A stretch of 64,000 bases of DNA, from NCBI GenBank assembly GCA_025999275.1, contig AP024680.1, forward strand, positions 684,522-748,521. Direction: 5' to 3'. Position numbers and translations under genes: made by a program. The DNA comes from Patescibacteria group bacterium (lineage in GTDB: Bacteria; Patescibacteriota; Microgenomatia; UBA8517). Positions within the stretch are counted from its first letter, which is position 1, and every line of letters begins with the position of its first letter. Of the stretch, positions 26,707 to 64,000 are shown piece by piece. The notes beneath the pieces were generated by a model. That model made no database searches. It saw nothing but the letters and a program-made list of their open reading frames with translations, and was not told the DNA's origin.

Positions 26707-28356
26707 CTAATTTTTGGGTTTAATATCTCTTTGACGAAAAGGATTCCAAGGAGAAATAAATGCTAAAAGCAGCTGATTTCCTAATTCTTCTGGAGCCTTA
26801 TTTTCATTAAACCATTGTTGACAAAGAGTTCTTCTTTTTTGCACCTCTTCTTCATTCCGGTAATGTGTATTTATCATATACCCTTCGTACCTATTATAAT
26901 CATACCAATTATATGTTTTTCCATTATAAGCTGGCGAAACACCAATTAAAGGGTCAATCCTAACTTTAAAATTAGCCAGGGCAGAAACCATATTTAAAAC
27001 AAAAGGATCTTCGTAATTCTCAAAAGCAAAATGCAATATTGAAATACTTTTGTCTGGATTAAGAAAAGCAACTCCATATACTAAAAGTCTTGTTTCAGAA
27101 TCTACATCAACAAAGGATAAAGATAGAAGTCTAAAAGGAACAGCTTCAGGGTGATCAAGAAAGTAATCAGATATAATAGGATCGCCTGTAACAGGATCAG
27201 GAAGAAGAGCATGGATCCCTTCTATAAAACTATAATCATAATAATCCATGAGGTTTGGGGGTATTGTAGATTCAGTAAAAGGAGGAATTTTACCCTCCTC
27301 CATTAATTGTCTTTCTCTTTTAAGAAGCCTGCCTGAGGTAATGTCTTCTAATGAAATTGTAGGGATTTCTTTAAGATGTTCACCGAGCCTCCAATTACCA
27401 GATTCTATTCCACTGAAATTGTAAAATACTTCAAGAGGAACTTCTGTAGGAGTTGGTGTTTCTGTTGGTCTTGGTGTTGGAGTAAGTGTAGGAATGGGGG
27501 TAGGGATTTCAATAGTTACTGTTGGAGTAACGGTTGTAATATCTGGTGTAACAACTGCAGATGAAGCTTCTTGAGACTGGTTTTGATAAATAGTGGTTGA
27601 CTTTTCAACTATTGCAGGAGGTTGAGATAAAGGAACACATCCTGATAATACAGATGAAACAACTGAGGCTGCAAGAAGAACTCTTCGAGGATTTCTTTTT
27701 CCATCTTTTTCTTCCTCTGGTATTGCAAAATGAGCTATTCCTCTTCCTCCTTCTGTTGAAAGCTTTTCTCGATGAGAGACTATTTTATTTACTGCCCTTT
27801 GTAAATTGCATAATTCTCTTGACAAGGCTTGCGGGTCAACTTTTCTTTCTTGTTGATAACTTGATAAAAGTAAATTCAATATTCTAGAAACACCTTTTTT
27901 GTAATCAACTCTAATGATTCCCTCAATCTCTCCTAAATGCCTTTTGTCATCAGGATTATCACCCCAAGGTTTTCCATTCATTCCCTCAATTCCAACAACA
28001 CCAACAGTTAATTTTATTTTCTTTCCATCAACAATATTAGATTTAGATTTGTTAAATGATTCTAAAGCTCTACCAATTCTTCGCCCCAGAAGATAATCTA
28101 TTTCTTCTTTTGTGTAAACTTCATGAAGATAACTTGATCTTTCAGACTTAGTACTCCTTTTGGATTCAGCATCTTGATCTTCTTTGGGCAAACCCGCTAA
28201 ACCTCGAAGAAAAGGCTTTATTCTGCTTAAATCACCTCTTTTTTCTCCCCCTTGTTTTTCATTTTCAATTGAATTTAAGACATCAATAGCCCAATTGGAG
28301 ATTTCACTTGATCTTCCACCTGCTTCCAAACCATTTTTGATTAATTCTATTGACAT
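26707..28356 (-). CDS. Hypothetical bitopic membrane protein (cytoplasmic N-domain, TM, Thr/Pro linker, extracellular domain)
   Basis: 549 aa. TM at RRVLLAASVVSSVLSGCV. No family recognised. Confidence 0.5.
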   Translation of the reverse strand: MSIELIKNGLEAGGRSSEISNWAIDVLNSIENEKQGGEKRGDLSRIKPFLRGLAGLPKEDQDAESKRSTKSERSSYLHEVYTKEEIDYLLGRRIGRALESFNKSKSNIVDGKKIKLTVGVVGIEGMNGKPWGDNPDDKRHLGEIEGIIRVDYKKGVSRILNLLLSSYQQERKVDPQALSRELCNLQRAVNKIVSHREKLSTEGGRGIAHFAIPEEEKDGKRNPRRVLLAASVVSSVLSGCVPLSQPPAIVEKSTTIYQNQSQEASSAVVTPDITTVTPTVTIEIPTPIPTLTPTPRPTETPTPTEVPLEVFYNFSGIESGNWRLGEHLKEIPTISLEDITSGRLLKRERQLMEEGKIPPFTESTIPPNLMDYYDYSFIEGIHALLPDPVTGDPIISDYFLDHPEAVPFRLLSLSFVDVDSETRLLVYGVAFLNPDKSISILHFAFENYEDPFVLNMVSALANFKVRIDPLIGVSPAYNGKTYNWYDYNRYEGYMINTHYRNEEEVQKRRTLCQQWFNENKAPEELGNQLLLAFISPWNPFRQRDIKPKN

Positions 28357-28491
28357 AGATTAAATAAAAGCAGTGTTTATATAGCTATTAGATACTATTA
28401 TAGGCTAATATTAAAAATTGTCAATACCGCCACAAGTATAATTAAACTATCAAAAGCAAACACCACTATTACTTATCCTTAATCACCAAAA

Positions 28492-47191: not shown

Positions 47192-47854
47192 CTACCACAC
47201 CGTTATCTTATCCTTTATTTTTTCGTAAGTTGATTGGGGTATAACCTTCTTGGATACTAATTCTTCCAAATTTGAGTAAGGCCTTTGTTCAATAATCTTT
47301 TGGGCGTAAACTTGGCCAATTCCTGGCAAAGAATCAAGCTCTTTGGCACTTGCAGTGTTAATATTTATCAAACCCCCATTTTTATCACCCAAAACGCTTG
47401 ATATATTTTGATACCCTCCATTTTTATTAGCACTCAGGCTATTTGATTGCTTATCTGGAATAAAAATCTTTTGTCCATCAGTTAATTTTGCCGCCCGATT
47501 TAGCATCTTCTCCACCCAATCTCTGTCAGCATCAGCTGAAAGACCACCAGCTAAAATCAGCGCGTCTTCAACCCTTGCTCCAGTTTCCAACTTATAAACA
47601 CCAGGCTTCTCAACCGCACCAGCAACCTCAACCACCAATTCTTTTTGTTTTTGTTCAACAGGGCTTTCTAAAACTTCAACCTTTGAACTTGAATAGCCTC
47701 TTGTTCCTAAAAAGAAAGCGCCAATGCCAGCAAAAATAAGCCCAAGAAGAACAAAAATAATCAAAGATCGATTGCTATTAAAAAATTTATCTAAATCAAA
47801 GCCTCTACCCTCTTTTTCATTGCCAAAATCAATAATCTCAAGGCTTTCAGGCAT
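47192..47854 (-). CDS. comEA: ComEA-like DNA-binding competence protein (SLBB + helix-hairpin-helix)
   Basis: ININTASAKELDSLPGIGQVYAQKIIEQRPYSNLEEL (HhH motif) at the C-terminus. N-terminal TM. Confidence 0.75.
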   Translation of the reverse strand: MPESLEIIDFGNEKEGRGFDLDKFFNSNRSLIIFVLLGLIFAGIGAFFLGTRGYSSSKVEVLESPVEQKQKELVVEVAGAVEKPGVYKLETGARVEDALILAGGLSADADRDWVEKMLNRAAKLTDGQKIFIPDKQSNSLSANKNGGYQNISSVLGDKNGGLININTASAKELDSLPGIGQVYAQKIIEQRPYSNLEELVSKKVIPQSTYEKIKDKITVW

Positions 47855-50636: not shown

Positions 50637-51359
50637 ATGTCCGAAAACACCGAAAGAAGAATAATTCAAACACTGCTTATACTCCTGGCTGTAAGTATTT
50701 CTTTTATCTTGGGTAAGGGCATACCCCAATTTACACTCCAAGTCATTGCCTTTCTTATTGCCTGCTATATAGCCTCCCATTTTCTCTCGCGCAAAATAAA
50801 GTTTATAAGAAACAACAAGACAATTATTGATTTTTTGCTTATCACCCTTGCTGTTTACACAATAATATTTTCAACCGGTGATCTCTTCTCACCGGCATTT
50901 TTCCTAATTCACTTTCTACTCTTTGGAGTTACTCTCCTTTTCGAGCCATTTTCAGCCTTACTACTTGCTACCATATCAACTGTTTTTTTCCTTCTTACCC
51001 CCCAAAAAGGCTTCTGGCTTGAAGCAATTCAACTTGGATCGATATTTTTAATTTCCCCTCTAGCCTTAATCTTTGGCAACCAATATTTAAAACTTCAGGA
51101 AAAAGAAACTGAAATAGAAATACTTAAAAAAGAAGAAAAGATTTTAGCCTCGGAAGTTGTCTCTCAAGAAAAAGCTGTTCGGGAATGGGCATTTGGAGAA
51201 TTTCGAAATCAACTTATTAAAATCTGGGAAAACTTGGAAAAAATCTCAAGAAGAGAAAACTTAACAAAAGGAAGTCAACAAAAATTAACTGAAATTTCAA
51301 ACCAACTTTCAAACTTGTTAAAAAGTGCGCAAACACTTGAGAGAAAGATATCAAAATAG
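50637..51359 (+). CDS. Hypothetical polytopic membrane protein with C-terminal coiled-coil-like tail
   Basis: 240 aa with 4-5 hydrophobic helices. Confidence 0.5.
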   Translation: MSENTERRIIQTLLILLAVSISFILGKGIPQFTLQVIAFLIACYIASHFLSRKIKFIRNNKTIIDFLLITLAVYTIIFSTGDLFSPAFFLIHFLLFGVTLLFEPFSALLLATISTVFFLLTPQKGFWLEAIQLGSIFLISPLALIFGNQYLKLQEKETEIEILKKEEKILASEVVSQEKAVREWAFGEFRNQLIKIWENLEKISRRENLTKGSQQKLTEISNQLSNLLKSAQTLERKISK

Positions 51360-51384
51360 TTCAATATATAAACTTCCGTAAAAT

Positions 51385-52146
51385 ATGGACAGAAAACTTT
51401 TAATTACCACATTCATATTTGCAACCATTGCTTCATTTATACTGCCAAAAAAAGTCTTCTCACAAGCCAAAGTAACATCACCAAACTATCAAATTCAACT
51501 TCCAGGATTCAACGCAGGTGCAGGAGTGCCTAAATCAACTAATTTCTGGACACGAGGCACCCTTGGTCAAACTGCTCCCGGCCTTTTTAGTTCGGCTAAT
51601 TATAGAGTTAGATCAGGCTTCCAATACATAAGCACAATAATTCCCTTTTCTTTCTCCATCTCAAATATATCTGTTAATTTTGGTGAATTAACACCAAATA
51701 CACCTGTAACAAGAACAGCAACTTTAACAGTAAAGGCAGGGGGTGCAGGCGGTTATACTGTCAAAGCGCAGGAAATGCATCCACTTCAGACTGTTGGAGG
51801 AGGTTCGACCATTAAAAATGTAACCTGCGATAGCGGAAGCTGTACCCGAACCTCTGCCGGACTTTGGACACTAAATTCAACCGATGGATTTGGATTTAAT
51901 ATGTCAGGAGATGATGTACCTGTTGATTTTATAAACTCAAACTATTTCAGACCTTTTGCTGACGCTTCTCTTGGCGAAGAACCGGCAATTATTATGGCTA
52001 AAAATCAAGTAACCTGGAATTATCCAAATAACACCTGGCCGTGGGAAAGCCAAGCTGTTATCACTTACAAAGTTAACATTCTAGGAACACAGGCAGCCGG
52101 AACTTATAACACGATCATTAAATTCACTGCAATACCATCACTCTAA
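51385..52146 (+). CDS. Secreted protein sharing a C-terminal domain with 53735-55285 (WxL-like, inference)
   Basis: Signal peptide. ...LTVKAGGAGGYTVKAQE...GLWTLNS...YNTIIKFTAIPSL aligns with LTVSTNAVSGYKVYIEE...YYNIVKYTAVPTF of the larger protein. Confidence 0.45.
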   Translation: MDRKLLITTFIFATIASFILPKKVFSQAKVTSPNYQIQLPGFNAGAGVPKSTNFWTRGTLGQTAPGLFSSANYRVRSGFQYISTIIPFSFSISNISVNFGELTPNTPVTRTATLTVKAGGAGGYTVKAQEMHPLQTVGGGSTIKNVTCDSGSCTRTSAGLWTLNSTDGFGFNMSGDDVPVDFINSNYFRPFADASLGEEPAIIMAKNQVTWNYPNNTWPWESQAVITYKVNILGTQAAGTYNTIIKFTAIPSL

Positions 52147-52167
52147 ATAAATAGGTAAAAGGCAAGA

Positions 52168-52711
52168 GATAAAGGGTAAAAGGCTATCAGCCATCAGCTA
52201 TCAGCCATCAGCCAAAGGACACCTTAAGGGTGTACTAGGTTGGCACCTAACTGATTAACTCAAAAGTCAAAAGGCAAAACTCAAAAGTACAATTCAAAAT
52301 TTAAAATTATTTAATTATGCAATTAAACCTTTGACTTTTAACTTGCAATTTTGACTTTTGAATTTTAATTTTTGAATTATTTTATTCTTAATTCTTAAAT
52401 CGTGAATCTTAATTCTTTTTTACCCTTACTACTTACTGCTTTCTACTTACTATTATCTTCCAGCTCTGACTAACTTAGACTAACTCCGACCAACCCCGCC
52501 GCAGGCGGGGCCAACTTTGACTAATCCCGCCGCAGGCGGGGACTAACTCCGACCAACTCCGACCATCATCTGACAAATGATAGCTGATGACTGGTAGCCG
52601 TTTCGTCAGGTGTCAACCTATTTTGAAAGAAGGTGCCAACCTAGTACACCCTTAAGGTGTCCTTTGGCTGATGGCTGATAGCTGATGGCTGATAGCCTTT
52701 TACCTTTTATA
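52168..52711. mobile_element. MITE-like non-coding element with ~80-bp terminal inverted repeats
   Basis: Left end ggctatcagccatcagctatcagccatcagccaaaggacaccttaagggtgtactaggttggcacc (52182-52247) is the exact reverse complement of 52632-52697. Inversion symmetry extends ~15 bp further (ggtaaaag / cttttacc). The interior has AT-rich long hairpins and cccgccgcaggcgggg GC-rich repeats. No ORF. Confidence 0.55.
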
Positions 52712-52734
52712 TATTTCTAGCTATACTTAAACCA

Positions 52735-53700
52735 ATGAAAAAGAAAATTGTTATCACAATCCTTTCATTATTATTAATCAACTTTTACACTAATACGGGC
52801 TTAGCTCAAAATGTATCCTTGTCTATCTCCCCTCCTATACTTGAGGCCGTTATTAAACCCGGCGAAGTGGTTGAACAAGCCTACACTCTACAAAATTCAG
52901 GCAATGAAACCACGGCCTCAATTCAAATCTATCAATTTGAACAAGCCGATGAATTTGGCAATGCAAAAATAGAAAGAAGTCTAGAAGAATACGATCCACT
53001 AAACTTAAAAGAATGGTTCAAAATAAAAGAGCCTCAAATTTCAATCGGAGACAAATTCACACTTGGTCAAGGTGAACAAAAAACTATCCGTCTTGTAATT
53101 AATCCACCGGATAATGCTCCCGATGGAGATTACTATTTCACCCTAATATTTAAAACCAGCTTGGAAAATTCTTTCATTAACACAAACACCAAAACTGCCC
53201 TATCACAAGCAGAAATTGGATCAAACATATTGATAACTATATCAAAAGAAGGCTTAGTAAACCGAAAGGCAAAAATCAAAGAATTCAAAGCACCAAAAGT
53301 TATTGATTCATTCAAACATTTAAATTATGAATTGCAAATTGCCAATATTGGCGAAGGTTTTTTCAAACCGTTTGGCAAAATTACCATCGAATCAATTCTA
53401 GGCAAAAAATATATTCTAAATATAGCTCCGCAAAACATCATTAGTGCTTCATCAAGAAAGATATCTTGTATTGAAAACGAAAGGCTTATTCCCTGTCAAA
53501 TCCCTGCCAAATTCTTAATCGGCCCATATAAAGCAACTCTTTCATTCCAGATAGAAGGAGATAAAAAAGATTATAAAGAAACAGTTACTAGTTTTGGAGT
53601 TCCTTTTGTAATCTTGTCAATAATAATTATTTCTGCTCTGGTTATTATCCTAATCTATCGGAAAAAACTATTGACAAACAGAAAGGATATGCTAGCCTAA
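52735..53700 (+). CDS. Secreted protein with C-terminal TM anchor and short basic tail (DUF916/DUF3324-like architecture, inference)
   Basis: Signal peptide, beta-rich body, C-terminus FGVPFVILSIIIISALVIILIYRKKLL. Confidence 0.45.
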   Translation: MKKKIVITILSLLLINFYTNTGLAQNVSLSISPPILEAVIKPGEVVEQAYTLQNSGNETTASIQIYQFEQADEFGNAKIERSLEEYDPLNLKEWFKIKEPQISIGDKFTLGQGEQKTIRLVINPPDNAPDGDYYFTLIFKTSLENSFINTNTKTALSQAEIGSNILITISKEGLVNRKAKIKEFKAPKVIDSFKHLNYELQIANIGEGFFKPFGKITIESILGKKYILNIAPQNIISASSRKISCIENERLIPCQIPAKFLIGPYKATLSFQIEGDKKDYKETVTSFGVPFVILSIIIISALVIILIYRKKLLTNRKDMLA

Positions 53701-53734
53701 AAATAGGGGTAATATAAATTACCATTAAGAAATT

Positions 53735-55285
53735 ATGAAAACTTCTTTAAAGTTTATTATTTTTGTTTTTGCTTTTTTTGTTTCAATTTTTGCTTTTGCT
53801 TTCTATCTTTTTAAACCAACAAAAGTCAAGTCTGCAAACTTTACCAATGTTACAGCCTCTCTTTCAAACTCCAGATTTTCATTCTACGCAGGATACTCTG
53901 CAGGCTCTATTGGCCAATCAAGAATTACAATTGACACCTCAGGAAATCCAGATAAAGACGTTGATAACCTTTTTGTAGGAGATTATATTTGTATTGCTCC
54001 AAGCAATTTTGTTGGATGTAGAGATAACACAACCTATGGTGTTGTAACAACAGAAGGGACGAATGGAGATGAATTTACCATTAGCCCCGCTCTTATCTCA
54101 ACACCAGATGCTAATGATCTAATAATTGCCACATCATCAGGAATCTTGACTGTCCAATTTACTCTTACCAACAATGTTCCAGATGGTGGGGATATATTAA
54201 TTACAATTCCAAGTGATGATGACACAACCTCCACCACCAGTACTGACGGTTTTCCTGATGCTGCAGCGACAACATCCGTTGGGGGATTTGATTTAAATGG
54301 CATCACTTCAACTCATGTCTCAACATCAACATCCTCCTCTGGATCTTGTAATAACTCCCATTGGTCGGCAACGGAAACAATAACACCAGGAAATGGCACC
54401 ACCGATCACACAATTAGAATCGACAGAAGCGGATCTGAATGTCAAGCAAACAATACCGTAATTACTGTTACCATTGGAACAACAAGCAAAGGTATAGTTG
54501 TTCCTCCTCCAACAACCAATGCCAGAACTCAAGGAGTAGCCGATATCTACTCTATCAACATCAAAACTCGCGACAACACCGATAACACAATTGACCAATC
54601 AAATGCCTTGGTTGCACCAGTTGAGGGAGTTTTTGTATCAGCCACTGTCCGCGAGACTCTTTCTTTCCAAGTGGCAGGAGACACTAGCGGAGCCTCAAGA
54701 TGCGGACAAACAACCGATGTTACCACCACCGCTACATCTGTTCCTTGGGGTGAGATATCAACCACAGGAACATTCTTCGAAGCAAGTCAAATACTAACAG
54801 TGTCTACTAATGCCGTCTCAGGTTACAAAGTATATATTGAAGAAAACGATCAAATGGGTAAGGATGGTAACACTTGTACTGGAACAGTGCCCTCATCAGG
54901 ACAATTTACTTTTGGTAGCGGAATTTGTATTAGAGACACGGTTTGTAATGCAACCACTTGCTCTGAATCAGTAGGTTACAATTGGACAAATGCTTCAACC
55001 TATCCTGGATTGGGCATTTCCCTCCAAAATCTAAGTGGAACAGATGCTGCATGGGTTTACAATTCAAACGATCCGTGTAGTACTACAGCAGGTACGGGCT
55101 CATTCTGTGCCAAGCAAATTGCAGATACGACAGAAGGAGGAGAAACAAGAAGCTATGTGATGACTAATTCTGGTCCTGTTGATTCAAGTCAGGTTTATCT
55201 TTGTTTCAGACTATCAATTCCTGGTACACAACCCGCAGGATTTTACTATAATATAGTTAAGTATACAGCTGTTCCAACATTCTAA
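53735..55285 (+). CDS. Large Thr/Ser-rich secreted protein with WxL-like C-terminal domain (inference)
   Basis: 516 aa. Signal/TM N-terminus. C-terminal ~220 aa homologous to 51385-52146. Confidence 0.45.
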   Translation: MKTSLKFIIFVFAFFVSIFAFAFYLFKPTKVKSANFTNVTASLSNSRFSFYAGYSAGSIGQSRITIDTSGNPDKDVDNLFVGDYICIAPSNFVGCRDNTTYGVVTTEGTNGDEFTISPALISTPDANDLIIATSSGILTVQFTLTNNVPDGGDILITIPSDDDTTSTTSTDGFPDAAATTSVGGFDLNGITSTHVSTSTSSSGSCNNSHWSATETITPGNGTTDHTIRIDRSGSECQANNTVITVTIGTTSKGIVVPPPTTNARTQGVADIYSINIKTRDNTDNTIDQSNALVAPVEGVFVSATVRETLSFQVAGDTSGASRCGQTTDVTTTATSVPWGEISTTGTFFEASQILTVSTNAVSGYKVYIEENDQMGKDGNTCTGTVPSSGQFTFGSGICIRDTVCNATTCSESVGYNWTNASTYPGLGISLQNLSGTDAAWVYNSNDPCSTTAGTGSFCAKQIADTTEGGETRSYVMTNSGPVDSSQVYLCFRLSIPGTQPAGFYYNIVKYTAVPTF

Positions 55286-55288
55286 TAA

Positions 55289-56308
55289 ATGAAAAAGTCT
55301 GCCAAAATAATTTCTATCATCGCAATTAGCCTTTTTGTTTCTTTGTCAGTCAAAGGCGCAGAGGCTCAAACCATCTTACCCCTAACCGTCTCCCCTGCCC
55401 GACAAACTATAAATATTGACCCAGGTACAACAGAAAAAACAACAATCAGCTTCTTTAATCAAGCAGACATACCTGTTGCTGGCAATCTAAAAGTGGTTGA
55501 TTTCATTGTTACTGACAACACCGGCACACCCTATCTTCTTGAAGGTGAAACTGCCATTCCAACTAAATACTCAGCTGCCAAATGGATTAGTATCCAAGCT
55601 GACAAAGCAATCATCCCTGCAAACGCATCATTTAAGGTACAATTGACAATCACCGCCCCCAAAGATGCAGCTGCCGGTGGAAGATATGCAGCAGTTTATT
55701 TTGAACCTACTGGAACTTTGCCAAACACCAGAGCCTTTATTAACCAAAAAGAAGGTCAACAATCAGTAACCTCAAGACTAGTAGGATTAATTAATATCAG
55801 AGTAAATGGACCAATAATTGAAGAGGCGGCAGTTAAATATCTTTCAGTTCCCAATTTTATTGAATACGGCCCAGTTGAAGTAAAAACAGAAATATACAAC
55901 AACGGAAGCTACCACATTACTCCAAAAGGTAAAATTACTCTCATCGACTGGCAAGGAAAAGTTGTTGATGAATACACACTTGAAGAAAGAAATATATTCC
56001 CGGAAAGATCAAGAATTTATGAAACAGAGCTCGGAAAAAGACTAATGATTGGAAAATACAAGGTTGAGCTTTTGGCAATGTATGGAGACTCAAATCAAAT
56101 ACTCTCAGCCAGCCAAGTTTTTTGGGCTTTCCCTTGGAGAATAACAGTAGCTATCGTATTAGCAGTTATTATAGCCATACTTCTTATCATCCTAATTACC
56201 AAGAAGATGCAAAAGAGGCAAAAAGAACTTGAGGAAAAGCTTGAAAAGGAAATCGATGAAATTGAAAAACTGAAGGAGAAATTCAAAGACTCCTCCTCTT
56301 CCAAATAA
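55289..56308 (+). CDS. Secreted protein with C-terminal TM anchor + charged coiled tail (paralogous architecture to 52735-53700)
   Basis: Signal peptide. ...WAFPWRITVAIVLAVIIAILLIILITKKMQKRQKELEEK. Confidence 0.45.
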   Translation: MKKSAKIISIIAISLFVSLSVKGAEAQTILPLTVSPARQTINIDPGTTEKTTISFFNQADIPVAGNLKVVDFIVTDNTGTPYLLEGETAIPTKYSAAKWISIQADKAIIPANASFKVQLTITAPKDAAAGGRYAAVYFEPTGTLPNTRAFINQKEGQQSVTSRLVGLINIRVNGPIIEEAAVKYLSVPNFIEYGPVEVKTEIYNNGSYHITPKGKITLIDWQGKVVDEYTLEERNIFPERSRIYETELGKRLMIGKYKVELLAMYGDSNQILSASQVFWAFPWRITVAIVLAVIIAILLIILITKKMQKRQKELEEKLEKEIDEIEKLKEKFKDSSSSK

Positions 56309-56318
56309 ATCCTTCTTC

Positions 56319-56406
56319 TGACAAGGTCCGTCCTTGTCAGTAAAATTAGCCTTGACAAAACTACTCGTTCTATCAATAATGAATTTGACAAAGACGGACC
56401 TTGTCA
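56319..56406. repeat. REP doublet immediately upstream of the RAYT gene
   Basis: tgacaaggtccgtccttgtca (56319-56339) and tgacaaagacggaccttgtca (56386-56406) in opposite orientation with a 46-nt spacer. Confidence 0.7.
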
Positions 56407-56414
56407 AAAAGGCT

Positions 56415-57113
56415 ATGCCCGCAAAAAACAGCTTAAAAGTGTTTGCAGAAAATACCTACTATCATATCTACAACCGTGGTGTTGAAAAGAGAAATATATT
56501 TATAGATAACCAAGACTACGAGGTTTTCTTAAATCTACTAAAGTATTATTTATCCGAAAATAACCAAGCAATTTACCACCCCATTGAAATAATTGCACCA
56601 GATAACAGGCCCCTAAGGCCAAGACCTCTTAAAAATCTAAACAAAGAAATTGAACTAATAGCCTACTGCCTTATGCCCAATCATTTTCACCTACTAATAA
56701 AGCAGATCTCAAAAGATGGAATGACAAAGCTAATGAGAGCATTATCTACCAGCTATGCCCTTTATTTTAACCGTCGCTACAAGCGCGAAGGAACCCTTTT
56801 CCAAGGAAGATACAAAGCAGTTATTATTAAAAATGACTCATACCTTCTTCATCTCTCGCGATATATTCATCTTAACCCCTCAAGCATATTGACAAGGACG
56901 GACATTGTCACTTGGCCCTATTCAAGCTACTCATACTTTCTTGGAACAAAAAAGGCTGACTGGGTAAAACCGCAAATTGTCTTAGATTTCTTTAAAAGGC
57001 CTGAAAATTCCCCTATCCCGCTAGAAAAATTTCAAACCTACCAGCAATTCGTTGAGGCTGGCAAGGAAAATCCTAAGGAAAATATAGAAAAACTAATACT
57101 CGAAGATGAATAA
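56415..57113 (+). CDS. REP-associated tyrosine transposase (IS200/IS605-like HUH enzyme, RAYT type)
   Basis: TYYHIYNRGVEKRNIF (Y-H-x-x-NRG), LIAYCLMPNHFHLLI (HuH motif), FQGRYKAV and YIHLNP (catalytic Tyr region). Start taken at ATG 56415 after the REP doublet. Confidence 0.75.
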   Translation: MPAKNSLKVFAENTYYHIYNRGVEKRNIFIDNQDYEVFLNLLKYYLSENNQAIYHPIEIIAPDNRPLRPRPLKNLNKEIELIAYCLMPNHFHLLIKQISKDGMTKLMRALSTSYALYFNRRYKREGTLFQGRYKAVIIKNDSYLLHLSRYIHLNPSSILTRTDIVTWPYSSYSYFLGTKKADWVKPQIVLDFFKRPENSPIPLEKFQTYQQFVEAGKENPKENIEKLILEDE

Positions 57114-58110
57114 GCCACAATTATCACCTGACAAGGTCCGTCTTTGTCAGATCAGTATAACTACAATCATTTTGTTTTTAATACCTAATAACACCATCAG
57201 AGCTCAAACAGCAACTCCGGTAACTAGTGATACTACTGTATCTGTCACTTTCAAAGTAGTCGAGGGAGAAACTCCAACCCCAACTGCCACTACTACCCCC
57301 ACCCCCATAACCAGTGGAACACCCACTCCTACAATTTCTCCCCAACCACAAATATCCCCAACACCCACACCAGAAGCCACCAAAGCCCCTCAAATCAATC
57401 TAAAGATATTCGGTTATGGCCCGCCTGATATACCAGTATCCTTAGTGGGAAAAAACATCTTAGAATTAACCACATCAAACGAGATTGGTTATTTCGAGTT
57501 TAGGAACATTCCCCTGCCAGAAATAAAAGGATTATTTAAACTATATCCTGAGCTTTGCCTGCAAGGTTACTATAAAGAGAGCTCAACACAGCCAGTTTGC
57601 CTACCAAGGCTGCCGGTAGGCAATCTCGAATACAATATCGGCCCTGTCATCCTTTCCCCAATTATAATAATTGAAAAAGGAGAAATCGCCTCAGGTGAAC
57701 AAGTAAAAGCAACCGGTAAAACCACACCCAATTCAGAAGTTTCAATTTACCTAGCCAAAGAAAAACAAAAAACATTCTTTAATTTTTTTGAAGAAATAAA
57801 ACTCATAAAGACTGCCTCAGCTTACTATCTCCCAAAGTATCAAACAACATCAAATGCCAACGGAGACTTCGAATTTAACCTACCTAGCGAATCACCGGCA
57901 AAATGGCGTCTTTTTTCCGCAGCTTCCTTCCAAGGCCAAAACTCTCCCAAGAGCAACACTCTTTCCTATCTAGTTGTCCCAAAAACATTTGAATTCTTTA
58001 AGAATATAATCGGTTTTCTTATTTCATTCTTCTCTCACTGGTTTTCAATTCTTATCGCAATTGAAATTGTATCTATCATCATTCTTCTATACTTTACCAG
58101 CAAAGATTGA
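57106..58110 (+). CDS. Hypothetical secreted Thr/Pro-rich protein with C-terminal TM
   Basis: 334-aa ORF. The stated N-terminus (MNKPQLSPDKVRLCQ) is encoded by a REP hairpin, so the real start is probably downstream at the signal peptide ISITTIILFLIPNN. Confidence 0.45.
   Translation: MNKPQLSPDKVRLCQISITTIILFLIPNNTIRAQTATPVTSDTTVSVTFKVVEGETPTPTATTTPTPITSGTPTPTISPQPQISPTPTPEATKAPQINLKIFGYGPPDIPVSLVGKNILELTTSNEIGYFEFRNIPLPEIKGLFKLYPELCLQGYYKESSTQPVCLPRLPVGNLEYNIGPVILSPIIIIEKGEIASGEQVKATGKTTPNSEVSIYLAKEKQKTFFNFFEEIKLIKTASAYYLPKYQTTSNANGDFEFNLPSESPAKWRLFSAASFQGQNSPKSNTLSYLVVPKTFEFFKNIIGFLISFFSHWFSILIAIEIVSIIILLYFTSKD
57129..57149. repeat. Single REP unit tgacaaggtccgtctttgtca just after the RAYT stop
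   Basis: Same 8-bp stem / 5-nt loop hairpin. Confidence 0.65.
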
Positions 58111-58187: not shown

Positions 58188-58739
58188 CTAAAGTTCAAAG
58201 GTAACGGTTACTCGTTGAGGTAAAACTTTGCCATCAACTGAGGCCTCAATTGAATAAACTCCGGCCACCGAAGAAGAAACTTCAAAAATTGCCTTGCCAA
58301 CATCATCAGTAATAGGCTGAACCTCGTCGACTTCCAGATTGTCACTCTTGCCCAAAACCACCATCTTGCCACCAACCCCCAAACCTTGAGAATCAAGAAT
58401 AAAAATAGTTATTCTTATCCTTTCCCCACTTGCCACCTTAGCTTTTAGAGGAGAAGCAAAAAGATAAGAATTGGCAAGCTCCATTTTGCGTGTCAAAGAA
58501 GAACTTTCAGCCTTGCTTGATATTCTTGTTCTTTCAGAAACTAAATAAACTGAATAAACAAGCCCTAAAAGTAAAAACAAAACCAAAATAATAAGAAACA
58601 AAGTCAAGAGAACACTCTTCCTTTTTTCCCTATTTAGCTCTTCTCTTTGTTTTTTTATCTCATCCTCTTTGTCTGTCAATAAAATTTCCGGCTTTTTTGA
58701 GTCCAGATAAGCAGGATTCTCTAGATCTTGACTAATCAT
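58188..58739 (-). CDS. Membrane-anchored protein with C-terminal Ig-like/Big-like beta domain
   Basis: 183 aa. TM (VLLTLFLIILVLFLLLGLVYSVYLV), then a beta-rich ~100 aa. Confidence 0.45.
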   Translation of the reverse strand: MISQDLENPAYLDSKKPEILLTDKEDEIKKQREELNREKRKSVLLTLFLIILVLFLLLGLVYSVYLVSERTRISSKAESSSLTRKMELANSYLFASPLKAKVASGERIRITIFILDSQGLGVGGKMVVLGKSDNLEVDEVQPITDDVGKAIFEVSSSVAGVYSIEASVDGKVLPQRVTVTFEL

Positions 58740-59276
58740 TATTTCAAGATACTATATAAAATACACCTTTTCAACACCTGGGAAACTCCTTTTCCCTCAC
58801 AAAAAATTGTTTAAAGCATCAAAGATCAATATACCGTAAAACAGGCGTTATTTGCCACTTTTTTTTATTAGCAAACAAGATTGATAAGTGACAAATTGAG
58901 GCTAAAATCATATTCAAAAAAACAAAAAATTAAAAATCATAAGATGCAATTAAAGATGATCGAATTAATCCATTAACCGCAAAATCAACGCAAGACCTAT
59001 ATTTTTTTTATACCCTTCTCCGCAATAAATTTTATCTTATTTTTGAAAATTATTTAAAATACTATCGGAATTGCAAAAAATATATTTAGATATATTTAAG
59101 TAAGCAAAAATATTATGCGGAAAAAATGTTATTGACACTGTGAAAATTATAGCTTATTTAAGGGCTTTTTTTAGCTTTAATCAGCTCTTGACAATTATTA
59201 ATAAATAATTTTAGAATAGTATAATGCATATAATTTGTATAATCTAGCCTCAATTTATGATAATTATCTAAAAACC

Positions 59277-62200
59277 ATGATAGACCGCATAACACAACTT
59301 TTTCTGCAGTACTTAAAATCCTGTAATGTTTCGGAAAAAACTCTTCGATACTACAAATCTGATATTGCCATGTTTTCAGCCTGGCTAATATTTCAGGCAA
59401 AATCAATTGGAGCTGATTGCAACAATCTCCAAGAAGCTTTACCCTTCATTAACAAAAAAACAGCCAAGGAGTATAGAGACTTCCTTATCAAAAATGGCAA
59501 CTCAATTCAAACCATCAATCGCCGGCTTTCAACCTTAAGAACATTTTCAAAATTTCTCTTTGAAAACGAGCTGCTCTCTTTTAACTTCGCTAAAAAAATA
59601 AAAAACATTTCAAGATCTGTTTTCATTCCCCCACTCTCACAAGCAATAAACCAATTCTCCTCATACCTGGAATCACAAAAAGTATCTGCCCTAACCAGAA
59701 AAAATTATCTTGCAGATATTAATCAATTTTCCAGATGGGTAGAAAAAACTGGCAAAAAAGAAGTTAAGGAAATAACATCAAAAGATATAAAAAGATATCT
59801 AATCATAGAATTGTCAAATGCTCCTGAGGCTACAAAAGATAGAAAAATTTCTTCACTAAAGAAATTCTTTACCTGGGCAGTTCAGGAAAGTAAAACAAAT
59901 ACAAATCCAGTTGAAGAATATCTAAAAGACACTGCTTACTTAAAGCCAATAGAAAAATCCATTTCTGAGCTTACAGAACCTAGTATTAACCGCAAAGTTT
60001 TCGGTAATTATCCTTCCTATGAGAGCTTGAAAGAGAAAATTAACGCATATATTGCGGATAAACCCAAGTTACAGAAGCTAGTCTACCATCTTCTCTATAC
60101 CAGACCTAAGTGGTACAAAGCTTATCATTCCCTTGCAATCAGTCGTTATATTAACTTTGCCATTCTTACCATTTTTGCTGCCGGGCTTGGATTCGGAATT
60201 TATCAACAACTTTTTGCCAAACCTCAAACACCTATTGCCTATCCCACTCAACCAGTTGCACCAAAAAGATATCTTTCCTTTCAAGGTCGTCTGACAAACC
60301 AATACAATACCCCCATTACTACTGCCACAAATATTATCTTTAAACTTTATGATGCTTCAACTGGTGGCAATGTCCTTTGGAATTCTGCTGGTGTTTCCTG
60401 CTCTATCACCCCTGACCAAGACGGAATCTTTTCAATTCTCCTTGGAACTCAATCGGGTGACGGCTATACCTGTACTGGCATTTCCGGCATTGACGCCTCT
60501 GTATTTAGTGAAAACGCTGAGGTCTGGCTAGGAATAAAAGTTGGTTCTGATCCTGAAGCTACCCCCAGAATTCAAATTGCTACCGTTGCCTATGCTTTAA
60601 ATGCTGAAACACTTCAAGGCTATCCCATCAACGCGACAGGTTCTGCTACTGTCAATACAGTTTTAACTATGAATTCAGGTGGCGAGGTTGTTTTGGCAGA
60701 AGTAGGACCAAAGATAAAATCTGTTTCCGGTAATTTTGGAATCCAAGGTGAAGCAATTACAATTCAAGCAAACGGAGGTGGAATCCCCGGCGATATTACC
60801 CTTTCCCCTTCCTCAAATGGAACTGTATCCATTTTGGCAAGCGGTACAACAAATGATTCTTTATATATCCAAAACGCTCAAATAACATCAGGAGCATTGA
60901 TCCACGGATATTATGGCGGAACAGCAACTAATGTTGATCTTCTAAAACTTGGCGCAGGTCCAAGTGAATCAACAAAATTCCTAGTTGAATCATCTGGTGA
61001 TACATTTATCGCCTCAGGTGCCGACTTGTTCATCGGAGGGATAGGGCTAAATGATAACAGCTCTACATCCTCAGGTGCTTCACTAATCGGTGTCTTTGAT
61101 GATTCAATGACATATATATCAGGTAATACCAATGTTCAATCTGCTATTAAGCAATTAGATACTGCCATTGGTAGCCTTTCAGGATCAGCTAGTGGATGGA
61201 CTGATGATGGAGTCATAGTAAGACTTACTACTTCATCTGATAGAGTTGGTATTGGAACAACCATTCCCAACTCAGCCAATAAACTAGCAGTTTTAGGTGG
61301 TGTGGGAATAGGATCAACAGCATATACAGAAGCTGCTGGAGCCCCAACTAATGGGATGATTGTTGAAGGAAATGTGGGAATTGGTACTACTGCCCCTCTT
61401 GCTACTCTTGATGTTGCTGGAAATATTCTTGTTAACAATGGTGGAACAATCGATACAAGATCAGCTGGAACACTAACTATTGGTGGAACAATACAAACAG
61501 GATTGACACTAGGAAGAAGTGGAGCAACTACCACCATAGCAGGATCTTCTGTTAATGTAGCCAATTTAACAACAGATGGAGTTGTATATACCTCAGGTGG
61601 TAATGGAACACTGAATTCTGAAGCTCTTCTTGCCATATCAAGAGGTGGAACAAATTCAAATGCTACTCCAACAGCAGGAGCAGTAGCATATGGTACAGGA
61701 ACTGCATATGCCTTCAATACTGCCGGCACTTCAGGACAACCTCTACTTTCAGGAGGAACAGGAGCACCTACATTTGGAACATTGGGACTAACATATGGTG
61801 GGACAAATGCTGACCTTTCAGGTGTAGCAACAGGAGGATTAATATATAAAGGAGCTTCTGCTTTAGCTGGTACATCTGCACTAACAGGTATTCTTCAGGG
61901 TAATGGATCATCAGCTCCATCTGCCATTACTGGTACTGTCAATTACATACCAAAATGGAGTTCATCTGCCCCCTACCTTACTGCAACATCACTAATATAT
62001 GATGATGGAACAAATGTAGGTATTGGAACAACTGTTCCTACAAAAGGAAAACTTAATGTATTAGGTTCTGTTGCCATTGGATCAACTGCATACACAGAGA
62101 CTAGTGGTGCTGCACCAACAAATGGAATGATTGTTGAGGGGAATGTGGGAATTGGGACAACAGCTCCAGCATATAAGCTTGATGTTAGTGGTGATATTTA

Positions 62201-64000
62201 TTCATCAGGAAATATAAGAGCTAATACTGATTTATACATTGCGGGAACTGCCTTGTCTGCCAATACTTCAACAACATCAGGTGCATCAAAGGTTGGTCTA
62301 TATGATGATTCAATGACATATATATCAGGTAATACCAATGTTCAATCTGCTATTAAACAACTTGATACTGCAATAGGTAGCCTTTCAGGATCAGCTGGTG
62401 GATGGACTGATGATGGAACAATTGTAAGACTTACTACTTCAACTGATAGAGTTGGTATTGGTACAACATCTGTTAATGCAAATACAAAGCTTGGTGTTCT
62501 TGGAGGTGTTGCCATTGGAAGCCAGACCTACTCTGATGCTCAAGCTCCTACTAATGGAATGATTGTTGAGGGTAATGTGGGAATTGGAACTACCAACCCA
62601 TCCACTTTCAAACTTGAAATAGCCGGCTCAGTCGGCCCATCAGCTGATAACACATACAATCTTGGTTCTTCATCAAGAAGATGGGCAAACATCTACGGAA
62701 CCAATATCTACGGCAATATAACTCCCTCTGGTTTTACCCAAGGATCTGTAATCTTTGCTGGCACTGGAGGAGTTCTTTCTCAAAACAACTCTCAATTCTA
62801 TTGGGACAATGCTAATTACAGGCTAGGAATTGGAACAACAACCCCATCTGTTTCCATTGATTCAACTGGAAGTTTAAGACTTACAGCTGGAACTTTCCAA
62901 ATTGGCAACGCTGCAAATGCAGCTTACAATAGAATTGGCACTTCAGCTACCAACCGTGGACTTTCCGCTGCAAACGATCTCTTGATCAATGGTAAACTCG
63001 AAGTCGACCAAGCCCTATTCCCTGATTCAGGTATTTACGGTTCAGCTGGAACACTGGTTGTTAACTTTCCTAACAACGACGCCTGGTTCTCAGATGAAGT
63101 TTGGGTTGATGGAAAAATTGGTATTGGCACAACATCACCTGTTTCAAAATTCCATGTCAGATGGTCCAACACTAATTGCGGCAGCCAATGTTTCACAGAT
63201 GCGGCAGTCTTTGAAAATAACGGTAATGTATTTCTTCAATTAATGGGTAGTAATTCTGGCGAAAAATCTGTTAATTTTGGATCACCAACAAACGGTGCCG
63301 CAGGCGCCATAAAATTTAACTACCACAATTTGAATGAATTAAGCTTTTGGACTGGAGGCAATGTTGAACAAATGGTAATTAGAGAAAATGGGAAAGTCGG
63401 CATCGGGACGACGGCGCCGGGGATGAAATTAGACGTCTCTGGAGATATAAGAGCAAGTGGAGAAACAATTGGAACTATCGGGAGTGGATACGGCCAATTT
63501 AGAGCAATATCTGGCAACTATGGCTTTATGCTTAGAAATGATGGGTCAAATACCTATTTTCTTCTTACTGCTTCTGGTAATCAATATGGTAGCTGGAATA
63601 GTTTAAGACCATTCCGTATAGCTAATGCCACTGGCGATGTGGCCCTTGGAAATGATACCTTGTATGTAGTTCACGGCGGCAACGTCGGCATCGGGACGAT
63701 AAGTCCACTACGCAAACTTGAAGTAAACAATGCAATGAAATTTACAAATAATTCTGCCGATACCAATGATGGTGTAATCGGCACCGCGCCTTTTCTTGCT
63801 GGACTTAATATCGTTGGTATTAACACTGATGGTGGCGGTCGCAAAATAAACTATTGGGGTTCACTTATTCAGAATGAGAACCCCGTTGGGAATACCTTTA
63901 TTGGTAATACATTTTTCCCTGGCTCTGGGGTTTGGAATTCAGCCGGCAACGTCGGCATCGGGACGACAAATCCGGGTTATAGATTAGTAGTAAGTCAAAC
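59277..64000 (+). CDS. Giant (>1570 aa, 3' end beyond window) glycine-rich repeat protein: two integrase-SAM-like N-terminal domains + TM + GNVGIGTTxP-type repeats
   Basis: Frame 0 is open from ATG 59277 to the window end. It is absent from the ORF track only because it has no in-window stop. The N-terminal ~270 aa contain two copies of a pattern like the tyrosine-recombinase N-terminal SAM/core-binding domain (SEKTLRYYKSDIAMFSAWL...IQTINRRLSTLRTFSKFL; LTRKNYLADINQFSRWV...RKISSLKKFFTWA). A TM helix FAILTIFAAGLGFGIY follows. Then >1200 aa carry recurring GMIVEGNVGIGTTAP..KLDV.G and SMTYISGNTNVQSAIKQLDTAIGSLSGSA blocks. Confidence 0.75.
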   Translation, partial: MIDRITQLFLQYLKSCNVSEKTLRYYKSDIAMFSAWLIFQAKSIGADCNNLQEALPFINKKTAKEYRDFLIKNGNSIQTINRRLSTLRTFSKFLFENELLSFNFAKKIKNISRSVFIPPLSQAINQFSSYLESQKVSALTRKNYLADINQFSRWVEKTGKKEVKEITSKDIKRYLIIELSNAPEATKDRKISSLKKFFTWAVQESKTNTNPVEEYLKDTAYLKPIEKSISELTEPSINRKVFGNYPSYESLKEKINAYIADKPKLQKLVYHLLYTRPKWYKAYHSLAISRYINFAILTIFAAGLGFGIYQQLFAKPQTPIAYPTQPVAPKRYLSFQGRLTNQYNTPITTATNIIFKLYDASTGGNVLWNSAGVSCSITPDQDGIFSILLGTQSGDGYTCTGISGIDASVFSENAEVWLGIKVGSDPEATPRIQIATVAYALNAETLQGYPINATGSATVNTVLTMNSGGEVVLAEVGPKIKSVSGNFGIQGEAITIQANGGGIPGDITLSPSSNGTVSILASGTTNDSLYIQNAQITSGALIHGYYGGTATNVDLLKLGAGPSESTKFLVESSGDTFIASGADLFIGGIGLNDNSSTSSGASLIGVFDDSMTYISGNTNVQSAIKQLDTAIGSLSGSASGWTDDGVIVRLTTSSDRVGIGTTIPNSANKLAVLGGVGIGSTAYTEAAGAPTNGMIVEGNVGIGTTAPLATLDVAGNILVNNGGTIDTRSAGTLTIGGTIQTGLTLGRSGATTTIAGSSVNVANLTTDGVVYTSGGNGTLNSEALLAISRGGTNSNATPTAGAVAYGTGTAYAFNTAGTSGQPLLSGGTGAPTFGTLGLTYGGTNADLSGVATGGLIYKGASALAGTSALTGILQGNGSSAPSAITGTVNYIPKWSSSAPYLTATSLIYDDGTNVGIGTTVPTKGKLNVLGSVAIGSTAYTETSGAAPTNGMIVEGNVGIGTTAPAYKLDVSGDIYSSGNIRANTDLYIAGTALSANTSTTSGASKVGLYDDSMTYISGNTNVQSAIKQLDTAIGSLSGSAGGWTDDGTIVRLTTSTDRVGIGTTSVNANTKLGVLGGVAIGSQTYSDAQAPTNGMIVEGNVGIGTTNPSTFKLEIAGSVGPSADNTYNLGSSSRRWANIYGTNIYGNITPSGFTQGSVIFAGTGGVLSQNNSQFYWDNANYRLGIGTTTPSVSIDSTGSLRLTAGTFQIGNAANAAYNRIGTSATNRGLSAANDLLINGKLEVDQALFPDSGIYGSAGTLVVNFPNNDAWFSDEVWVDGKIGIGTTSPVSKFHVRWSNTNCGSQCFTDAAVFENNGNVFLQLMGSNSGEKSVNFGSPTNGAAGAIKFNYHNLNELSFWTGGNVEQMVIRENGKVGIGTTAPGMKLDVSGDIRASGETIGTIGSGYGQFRAISGNYGFMLRNDGSNTYFLLTASGNQYGSWNSLRPFRIANATGDVALGNDTLYVVHGGNVGIGTISPLRKLEVNNAMKFTNNSADTNDGVIGTAPFLAGLNIVGINTDGGGRKINYWGSLIQNENPVGNTFIGNTFFPGSGVWNSAGNVGIGTTNPGYRLVVSQ

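Follow-up and report, generated by a model that had tools for sequence, protein, structure and literature searches.

The candidate phyla radiation (CPR), or Patescibacteria, accounts for much of the diversity of bacteria, and its members live on other cells, with molecules for attachment and its sensing that are mostly unknown. Among the closest described systems is the Pam pilus of Ca. Mycosynbacter amalyticus, reported by Troman et al. (bioRxiv, June 2026; 10.64898/2026.03.03.709456), which is built from the donor-strand-exchange pilins PamA, PamB and PamE, the tip pilin PamT and the tether PamR, with two chaperones, PamC and PamD, that carry a signal peptide and a C-terminal transmembrane (TM) helix. 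The same preprint points out that homologs of the system occur in Saccharimonadia and Microgenomatia, and mentions in one sentence, with no role assigned, a 'tail fibre-like protein' consistently co-localised with the pam operon. In this work we analysed a stretch of 64,000 nt (hereafter the window) of a Microgenomatia genome (Patescibacteria group bacterium, assembly GCA_025999275.1, contig AP024680.1, positions 684,522 to 748,521), where an open reading frame (ORF) next to a pam-type operon encodes a fibre protein headed by two recombinase-type domains and a TM helix (59277..64000, forward strand, truncated by the window end). The best overall explanation for this protein, which we favour with modest confidence, is a surface fibre with a membrane-tethered DNA-binding head, possibly autoregulatory. 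Membrane-tethered one-component regulators are a familiar class in other bacteria, with ToxR, TcpP and CadC as examples. In the plant ALOG factors, a core-binding domain of recombinase origin has been described as exapted for binding DNA in a sequence-specific manner (PMC3537659, PMC10927535).

The frame opened by the ATG at 59277 contains no stop along 1574 codons up to the window end, an event with a probability of about 4e-45 as estimated from base composition, and orthologs are found in the loci L165 and L083/L084. A sequence-only reading of the window had already advanced an uninterrupted frame of more than 1570 codons, absent from the list of ORFs for lack of an in-window stop, and both statements are correct, since the list skips ORFs running off the end. 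As judged by collinearity with the complete ortholog of 1,831 residues from L165 (closed genome CP055308.1 of 802,554 bp), the protein probably extends about 290 residues past the window edge, for an estimated total of about 1,860-1,900. The label 'giant' used in that reading holds in the sense of a large protein, but not within its own family, where lengths go from 1,294 to 6,346 residues. Another candidate for the full-length version, P0267 (3,232 residues), was discarded, as its 45% identity covers only the first ~600 residues and the sequences then diverge.

From its N-terminus, the protein comprises a head of about 215 residues, a basic linker with juxtamembrane helices (aa 215-286; 59919..60134), a single TM helix (aa 287-313; 60135..60215), a beta-rich base ectodomain (aa 329-435; 60261..60581) and the fibre. 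The linker region, delimited from alignments, has an isoelectric point (pI) of 9.6, conserves a RP(K/N)WYK.YHS motif and forms helices at residues 251-285 in an AlphaFold2 (AF2) model of residues 1-480, which was built with a 26-sequence family alignment and reached a mean predicted local distance difference test score (pLDDT) of 82.6. The TM helix was also anticipated from the bare sequence, and hydropathy and AF2 agree on it: the sole strongly hydrophobic segment of the protein lies at residues 286-310, and the modelled helix at 287-313. The part of the protein preceding this helix shows a pI of 9.7, with 48 Lys plus Arg against 28 Asp plus Glu residues, whereas the part following it is acidic (pI 4.6-4.8). 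The same asymmetry occurs in 78 of 78 family loci, with a median pI of 10.0 (minimum 9.24) before the helix versus 4.06 (maximum 4.94) after it, from which a signal-anchor topology with the N-terminus inside and the C-terminus outside is predicted. The base ectodomain, defined by invariant columns, starts with an invariant P.R.LSFQGRLT strand and is modelled as a beta-rich domain at residues 333-435, with strands of pLDDT 85-92. Fold searches give secondary matches to immunoglobulin (Ig)-like domains, and its distant sequence relatives include annotated tail fibre proteins with a Collar domain. Altogether, we consider with high confidence that this is a type II membrane protein with the order head, TM helix, base and fibre.

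The two domains of the head correspond to the core-binding (SAM-like) domains of tyrosine recombinases, as the sequence-only reading had put forward, and both profile matches and a fold search support it. Domain 1 (aa 1-106; 59277..59594) is matched by Pfam Phage_int_SAM_5 at residues 9-106, and its modelled helices span residues 4-96; domain 2 (aa 119-214; 59631..59918) is matched at residues 124-204 by Phage_int_SAM_1 and Phage_int_SAM_4, and also by NCBIfam XerC. Over the whole protein, Phage_int_SAM_1 hits two stretches (E=2.4e-23), and it also matches all of the 64 family heads that were scanned. The AF2 model shows two helical bundles, both with pLDDT >95, for which the best Foldseek matches in the PDB are tyrosine-recombinase core-binding domains (Brujita Int, lambda Int and XerA; the fold of Cre matches as well), with a root-mean-square deviation of 2.1 Å across 94 columns against XerD (1a0p), and TMt values of 0.77 against the isolated core-binding domain of lambda Int (2oxo) and 0.76 against 3nrw. 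Moreover, the helix signature T.NRRLS.LR.F of Xer proteins is kept in every family member, and Arg189 of domain 2 (R189) is invariant in the family alignments. Other DNA-binding folds are hardly represented: in the window protein all matches of the head are of the SAM-like/core-binding kind, with none to the OmpR/PhoB-type winged helix, the Pfam ALOG_dom match is marginal (E=0.084; 13.5 bits versus a cutoff of 26.6), so that the head does not qualify as an ALOG member, and weak additional helix-turn-helix (HTH) matches appear in a few heads of the family (HTH_24 in 4 of 64). A sequence search of the PDB with the single protein returned noise only, and a family profile was needed to obtain sequence matches. 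The best of these, chain 14 of entry 9i5v (401 residues, in a ribosome entry), is named 'RaiA' in the table, although its N-terminus aligns like an integrase core-binding domain and the label is probably misleading.

Public databases name members of this family 'site-specific recombinase XerD', 'phage integrase SAM-like domain-containing protein', 'site-specific integrase' and even 'bactofilin', and the first three names would favour a functional integrase, or otherwise a chimera of integrase and fibre genes created by misassembly or frameshift. However, the NCBIfam models of XerC, XerD and XerA, with matches up to E=7e-26, align exclusively at model positions 2-93 of ~295, which indicates the core-binding domain alone. 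In this line, no recombinase catalytic domain (Phage_integrase) was detected either in the 1574 residues of the window protein or in the complete orthologs L165 (1,831 residues) and L092 (3,285 residues), and without it recombination chemistry is impossible. As for a chimera, independent assemblies by the hundred show this fusion, and so does a closed genome. The chances of either explanation are negligible.

Past the base, the ectodomain is acidic and rich in Gly, Thr, Ser and Asn, and consists of recurring modules that were called by DNA self-comparison and regular expressions, as protein self-BLAST was uninformative. A first module (60963..61412), containing ...SMTYISGNTNVQSAIKQLDTAIGSLSGSA...GMIVEGNVGIGTT, was located by the DNA repeat, by regular expression and by alignment with L165, and a second copy (62157..62615) represents a duplication relative to this ortholog. 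At the DNA level, positions 61062-61390 and 62268-62593 are 79% identical. The repeat blocks previously noticed by eye are indeed present, with three occurrences of GMIVEGNVGIGTT (aa 693, 950 and 1094), two of SMTYISGNTNVQSAIKQLDTAIGSLSGSA (aa 610 and 1012) and twelve G[IV]G[TS] motifs, and their likeness to phage tail fibres has been borne out by three lines of evidence. Residues 1381-1448 (63417..63620) match the trimerization domain of T4 gp34 (Pfam Gp34_trimer, PF21446; E=1.9e-20). The last segment, roughly the last third, matches fourteen PHROG families, nine of them of tail or tail-fibre proteins, including the long-tail-fibre subunits of T4-type phages, and repeated G.VGIGTT.P..KL.V motifs are common to the fibre protein and the tail-fibre PHROGs. 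Finally, tblastn with residues 1281-1574 retrieved 892 phage records, the best of them gp34-type proximal long-tail-fibre subunits of T4-like phages, with ~34% identity over 215 residues.

Comparison with L165 revealed 76% identity over the first 721 residues and reshuffled modules beyond this point; the window protein has an extra copy of a ~400-residue module, and its residues 961-1203 realign to residues 563-789 of the ortholog. More generally, ortholog comparisons show a conserved N-terminal part of ~600-720 residues versus variable distal modules, and receptor-binding fibres typically show this combination of a constant proximal end with distal modules that vary. Peptidase_S74, a C-terminal intramolecular chaperone typical of trimeric phage fibres and spikes, is found at the C-terminus of three relatives (L081, L099 and L105), whereas some other relatives lack it and one ends in a Hint/intein-type domain. 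Hint/intein-type sequences within or at the end of the fibre gene have been noticed in L107, where the last ~75 residues of a 2,464-residue product match Intein_splicing, in P0024, as a 'CIEENSLI...' insertion, and in L096 (~5593), and they could be bacterial intein-like autoprocessing domains. By homology, the ectodomain is probably a tail-fibre-like trimeric rod, and a role of the protein as a surface fibre in adhesion appears likely to us. Such a rod would project from the cell and contact a host or partner cell alongside the Pam pili, and its distal modules would be reshuffled and duplicated between strains, as it happens with the receptor-binding fibres of phages.

Since its distal part is clearly homologous to T4 gp34 and tail-fibre PHROGs, and some relatives contain Peptidase_S74, the gene could also be read as the tail-fibre gene of a phage or prophage, that is, as coding for a virion component. 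Against it, a cytoplasmic head and a TM anchor are not features of a virion fibre, and the chromosomal context of leucyl-tRNA synthetase (LeuRS), ComEA and pam-type genes is kept in dozens of genomes, including a closed one. Moreover, no other phage genes were seen in the neighbourhood within the window, and the anchor module has no relative among 2.9 million viral contigs. This origin is thus highly improbable, and a real integrase, a prophage fibre and an assembly chimera can all be regarded as effectively excluded.

A word-indexed search with the head produced eight relatives, of which all those with a named source come from Patescibacteria and several are annotated as 'site-specific integrase, partial'. 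With a profile built on the module that spans the juxtamembrane region, the TM helix and the base, this number rose to 136, with named relatives in Shapirobacteria, Roizmanbacteria, Beckwithbacteria, Collierbacteria, Dojkabacteria and the Microgenomates group. HMMER, run exhaustively over 1.84 billion cluster representatives (50% identity clusters; threshold E<=1e-30), revealed at least 754 clusters with the architecture, essentially all from Microgenomatia-type CPR bacteria, and its best 150 matches all exceed 400 bits. In this regard, the fusion described in the sequence-only reading is genuine and conserved, a closed genome included, and it is shared by a large CPR-specific family instead of being an isolated case. 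Among 80 metagenome loci, apparently intact complete genes encode 1,294 to 3,285 residues, and several loci keep the gene still open after more than 3,700 residues at the contig end. Assembly leaves its own traces on these genes: short-read assemblies break within the fibre repeats, and in the 8.4-kb Logan contig of the same organism (L163/L164) the gene is cut at residue 585; most relatives obtained by word-indexed searches are short N-terminal fragments labelled 'integrase, partial'; and in long-read assemblies such as L081 frameshifts split the gene into at least six ORFs. The giant genes described in the literature for Omnitrophota were considered as well and have no bearing on this family. 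What was already known is that the family sits in databases under wrong names and that its co-localisation with pam genes had been noted once. Literature searches on CPR, integrase and tail fibre topics gave no description of the head-TM-fibre architecture, of a split first domain or of the repeat array presented below, so these are the new elements.

The first domain of the head is not always part of the fibre protein. In 43 of 82 family loci, one core-binding domain belongs to the giant gene, while ahead of it, on the same strand and under the same promoter, lies a separate ORF of ~160 residues that Pfam identifies as a SAM-like domain (E from 1e-13 to 1e-17). Both domains are fused in about 22 of the loci, the window included, and a single domain was detected in the remaining 17; as the single-domain hidden Markov model fragmented its matches, the per-protein counts are usable for these split, fused and single classes only. 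Being present either fused or separate, the domain pair itself looks like the selected unit, and a purely topogenic filler would hardly account for this.

Another feature of the family lies in the leader of the gene. The intergenic region (58740-59276) is 537 bp long with a GC content of 25-28%, in good agreement with the AT-rich leader of ~540 bp first reported, and beyond that claim it holds a promoter and a tandem array specific to the family. The promoter is sigma-70-like (59188..59217, forward strand; TTGACA, 18 nt, TAGAAT) and matches the consensus at 11 of 12 positions. Right after it, three TATAAT hexamers with a 9-nt period followed by CTAGCCT (59220..59243) form a candidate operator, for which phylogenetic footprinting and enrichment provide the evidence. 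Among relatives, a block of 36-41 nt just 5' of the start codon is 86-88% conserved where leaders are otherwise unalignable, and the spacers between the TATAAT hexamers are variable. The array holds the only occurrences of TATAAT-N3-TATAAT in the 64-kb window, and family loci totalling 835 kb contain 63 exact occurrences, of which 60 map upstream of the transcription unit on the strand of the gene. Those at a distance of 450-1,400 nt from the giant gene stand in front of the ORF that encodes the first domain separately, at times with an extra small ORF in between.

With a generalised unit, GT(A/C)TAAT, searched as T[AC]TAA[TG]-N3/4-T[AC]TAAT, the array was detected upstream in 68 of 85 loci, plus two missed by the way the upstream interval was defined, at a density of 0.747 per kb compared to 0.0074 per kb elsewhere, that is, a ~100-fold enrichment. 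Moreover, 66 of the 68 loci with an array have a TTGAC upstream of it and in fixed phase with it (mode 41 nt, with side peaks ~9-10 nt off), which places the start of the repeats at the -10 position and extends them into the initially transcribed region. The period is 10 nt in one clade, and in a divergent clade (L144, L153 and L155) the units read GTCTAAT, whose C at the second position is incompatible with a functional -10 hexamer. Two other interpretations were tried and rejected. The array is not a general promoter style, as only 13 occurrences were found outside the upstream zone in 1.75 Mb, three of them true positives that the interval as defined had missed, and the leader is not a structured or known RNA, since it shows no significant structure (z=-0.12) and no Rfam match. 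A single other site of this kind occurs in the window, at 28402 on the reverse strand, where a TTGACA-N17-TATAAT promoter with a further TCTAAT unit lies upstream of an uncharacterised ORF (26707-28356; 549 residues); it may be either a chance occurrence or a second target of the array reader.

We infer that the head binds DNA with about even chances, keeping the ancestral role of core-binding domains, and its most plausible target would then be the tandem GT(A/C)TAAT array at the -10 region of its own promoter. The fibre protein, together with the soluble first domain in those loci where it is split, would act as a membrane-tethered repressor or regulator of its own expression, following a ToxR-like logic. 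Specific recognition of the array by the head is a narrower claim, and a rather doubtful one at this stage.

The same fibre could instead carry a head devoted to protein-protein contacts, either as a cytoskeletal or assembly anchor, as an oligomerisation platform or as a topogenic 'stop', leaving the array as a promoter feature made of tandem -10 boxes or causing sigma-70-dependent pausing ahead of a very long gene. Several observations weigh in this direction and against DNA binding. The positive-inside rule would by itself make the head basic, since every cytoplasmic segment next to a signal anchor should have a high pI, and RodZ offers the precedent of an HTH-type domain in a similar topology that binds protein instead. 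The array units fit the -10 consensus in phase with the -35 box, so they may serve as redundant promoters or as pause sites that depend on sigma; in about 15 of the 85 loci no array is recognisable, and the change between clades from GTATAAT to GTCTAAT units amounts essentially to a single event in evolution. The preferred reading of the ectodomain has its weak points too, as trimerisation is deduced from homology only and Peptidase_S74 gave no match in the closest complete ortholog, L165. A head acting purely as a protein module, however, does not sit well with a Xer helix signature and an R189 kept in every member, with GTCTAAT units without the second-position A that sigma needs, with an array essentially confined to one transcription unit in 1.75 Mb, or with a split or fused domain pair that resembles the paired half-site binding of Xer proteins. 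All things considered, we find this alternative fairly unlikely, and a surface fibre with a tethered DNA-binding head remains our choice.

The genomic neighbourhood of the fibre gene was analysed by tblastn of the window neighbours against the 82 family loci, which uncovered a conserved cluster. Directly upstream and divergent, a small membrane protein (58188..58739, reverse strand) with an N-terminal TM helix and a Big_1 Ig-like domain is present in 63 of the loci. Behind it lies a homolog of the Pam-pilus operon (50637..58110, forward strand), recognised by NCBIfam matches, AF2 modelling, paralogy and synteny. Its members in the window are a polytopic membrane protein (50637-51359), the PamT-like tip pilin o253 (51385-52146), the chaperone-like protein o321 (52735-53700), the two-domain pilin o516 (53735-55285), to whose C-terminal domain o253 aligns, a second chaperone-like protein, o339 (55289-56308), an inserted IS200-like ORF (56334-57113) and a candidate PamR by its position (57106-58110), a protein that has a hydrophobic stretch at its N-terminus, a linker rich in Pro and Thr and a TM helix at its C-terminus. 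Conservation decreases from o334 (56 loci) through o339 (50), o516 (44), o321 (39) and o253 (37) to LeuRS (21). The match of o253 to CPR_pilus_PamT (E=1.4e-14) and to CPR_Pam_pilin_C (E=3.8e-6) remains below the curated cutoffs in both cases. Both chaperone-like proteins, o321 and o339, have a signal peptide and a C-terminal TM helix, and they are distantly paralogous to each other. The AF2 model of o339 (pLDDT 85) contains two beta-sandwich domains, with Enterococcus faecium WxLIP as the best match in the PDB (9i25 and 9i1y; E~1e-12), followed by the chaperones CfaA, CsuC and Caf1M of chaperone-usher systems; Pfam gives a sub-threshold WxLIP_PGBD (DUF916) match. As the modelled o339 is closer to WxLIP than to the Gram-negative chaperones, the CPR Pam system and the WxL/Csc surface-protein loci of Gram-positive bacteria may form one superfamily.

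Two further genes of this region deserve a comment. The IS200-like ORF encodes a Y1 transposase, overlaps the next gene by 8 nt and occupies the same position only in the closest relatives (L083, L084 and L165-L168) and in L141 and L159, being absent from most loci; it could be stably inherited or domesticated. Just outside the pam-like cluster and beside LeuRS, there is a gene for a ComEA-like DNA receptor with SLBB and helix-hairpin-helix (HhH) domains (47192-47854, reverse strand), and close relatives (L165 1255-3076) also carry ComEC and a metallo-beta-lactamase-fold gene there, so in this lineage competence genes map ~10 kb from the fibre gene.

Such a tight and widespread synteny with pam-type genes, with chaperone-like partners encoded nearby, raises the idea that the fibre is a structural part of the pilus itself, serving either to anchor it in the membrane or as an adhesin at its end, with the LSFQGRLT strand connecting it to the pilins by donor-strand exchange. 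This invariant strand follows a phi-x-F-x-G-x-phi pattern, which we take to resemble the N-terminal donor strands of chaperone-usher pilins. In the AF2 monomer, however, the strand is placed with high confidence in the beta-sandwich of the protein itself, and the divergent gene stands between the pam-like genes and the giant gene, which has a promoter of its own. The fibre protein gave no match to the NCBIfam Pam models either and differs from them in architecture, so it is not a defined PamA, PamB, PamC, PamD, PamE, PamT or PamR component. Furthermore, anchoring is attributed to PamR in the preprint, whose model leaves the fibre out (10.64898/2026.03.03.709456). We regard this possibility as improbable, and much less attractive than an independent surface fibre that works next to the pilus.

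The family is abundant and linked to a pilus system that is the only one specific to CPR bacteria described to date, and its systematic mislabelling as 'integrase/XerD' inflates the counts of mobile-element genes in CPR bacteria while hiding a major surface structure. It also shows clearly, in bacteria, how the core-binding domain of a recombinase can persist once the catalytic domain is gone, in both fused and split forms. The sharply defined candidate DNA target makes the function of the head directly testable. A bolder idea, which is more conjectural still than the specific binding of the array, is that these proteins constitute a contact-sensing class, where a host-touching rod would be linked physically, by way of the single TM helix, to DNA-binding domains of recombinase origin sitting on a tandem-repeat operator at their own promoter, and perhaps at other sites too. 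Attachment of the fibre, tension or proteolysis would be converted directly into a transcriptional response. If true, this would provide a direct signalling route in organisms with very few conventional signalling systems.

Altogether, the protein shares features with several described systems. With the Pam preprint it shares the type of neighbourhood (two pilins, one PamT-like and one with two domains, a pair of chaperone-like proteins, plus a gene resembling those of tail fibres) and the occurrence in Microgenomatia, whereas the recombinase-type head, the TM anchor, the split or fused domain and the cis-element described here are matters on which the preprint is silent. XerC and XerD have in common with it the four-helix core-binding domain (in two copies here), the T.NRRLS.LR.F helix and the fold match, but they keep a catalytic domain, which is lacking in these proteins, where the domains are membrane-tethered and either in tandem or split over two genes. 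The long tail fibres of phages share gp34 homology, motifs, a conserved proximal and a variable distal end and, in some members, the S74 domain, but they are attached to a baseplate, whereas the protein described here is chromosomal, non-viral, TM-anchored and provided with a cytoplasmic domain; we know of no virion fibre with such a domain. In the ALOG factors a recombinase N-terminal domain was likewise exapted after losing its catalytic partner, although these are soluble eukaryotic proteins derived from DIRS1 and with a zinc-ribbon insert, so we draw an analogy and not a family assignment. Finally, the topology of ToxR-type regulators, with an N-terminal cytoplasmic domain of DNA-binding type, a single TM helix and an external domain, is the one predicted for this protein, which also resembles them in a candidate direct-repeat target at the promoter and in the association with a pilus locus; ToxR-type proteins, however, use an OmpR-type winged helix and a small sensor, whereas the fibre protein would rely on core-binding domains and a fibre of more than 1,200 residues for a regulation that is hypothetical.

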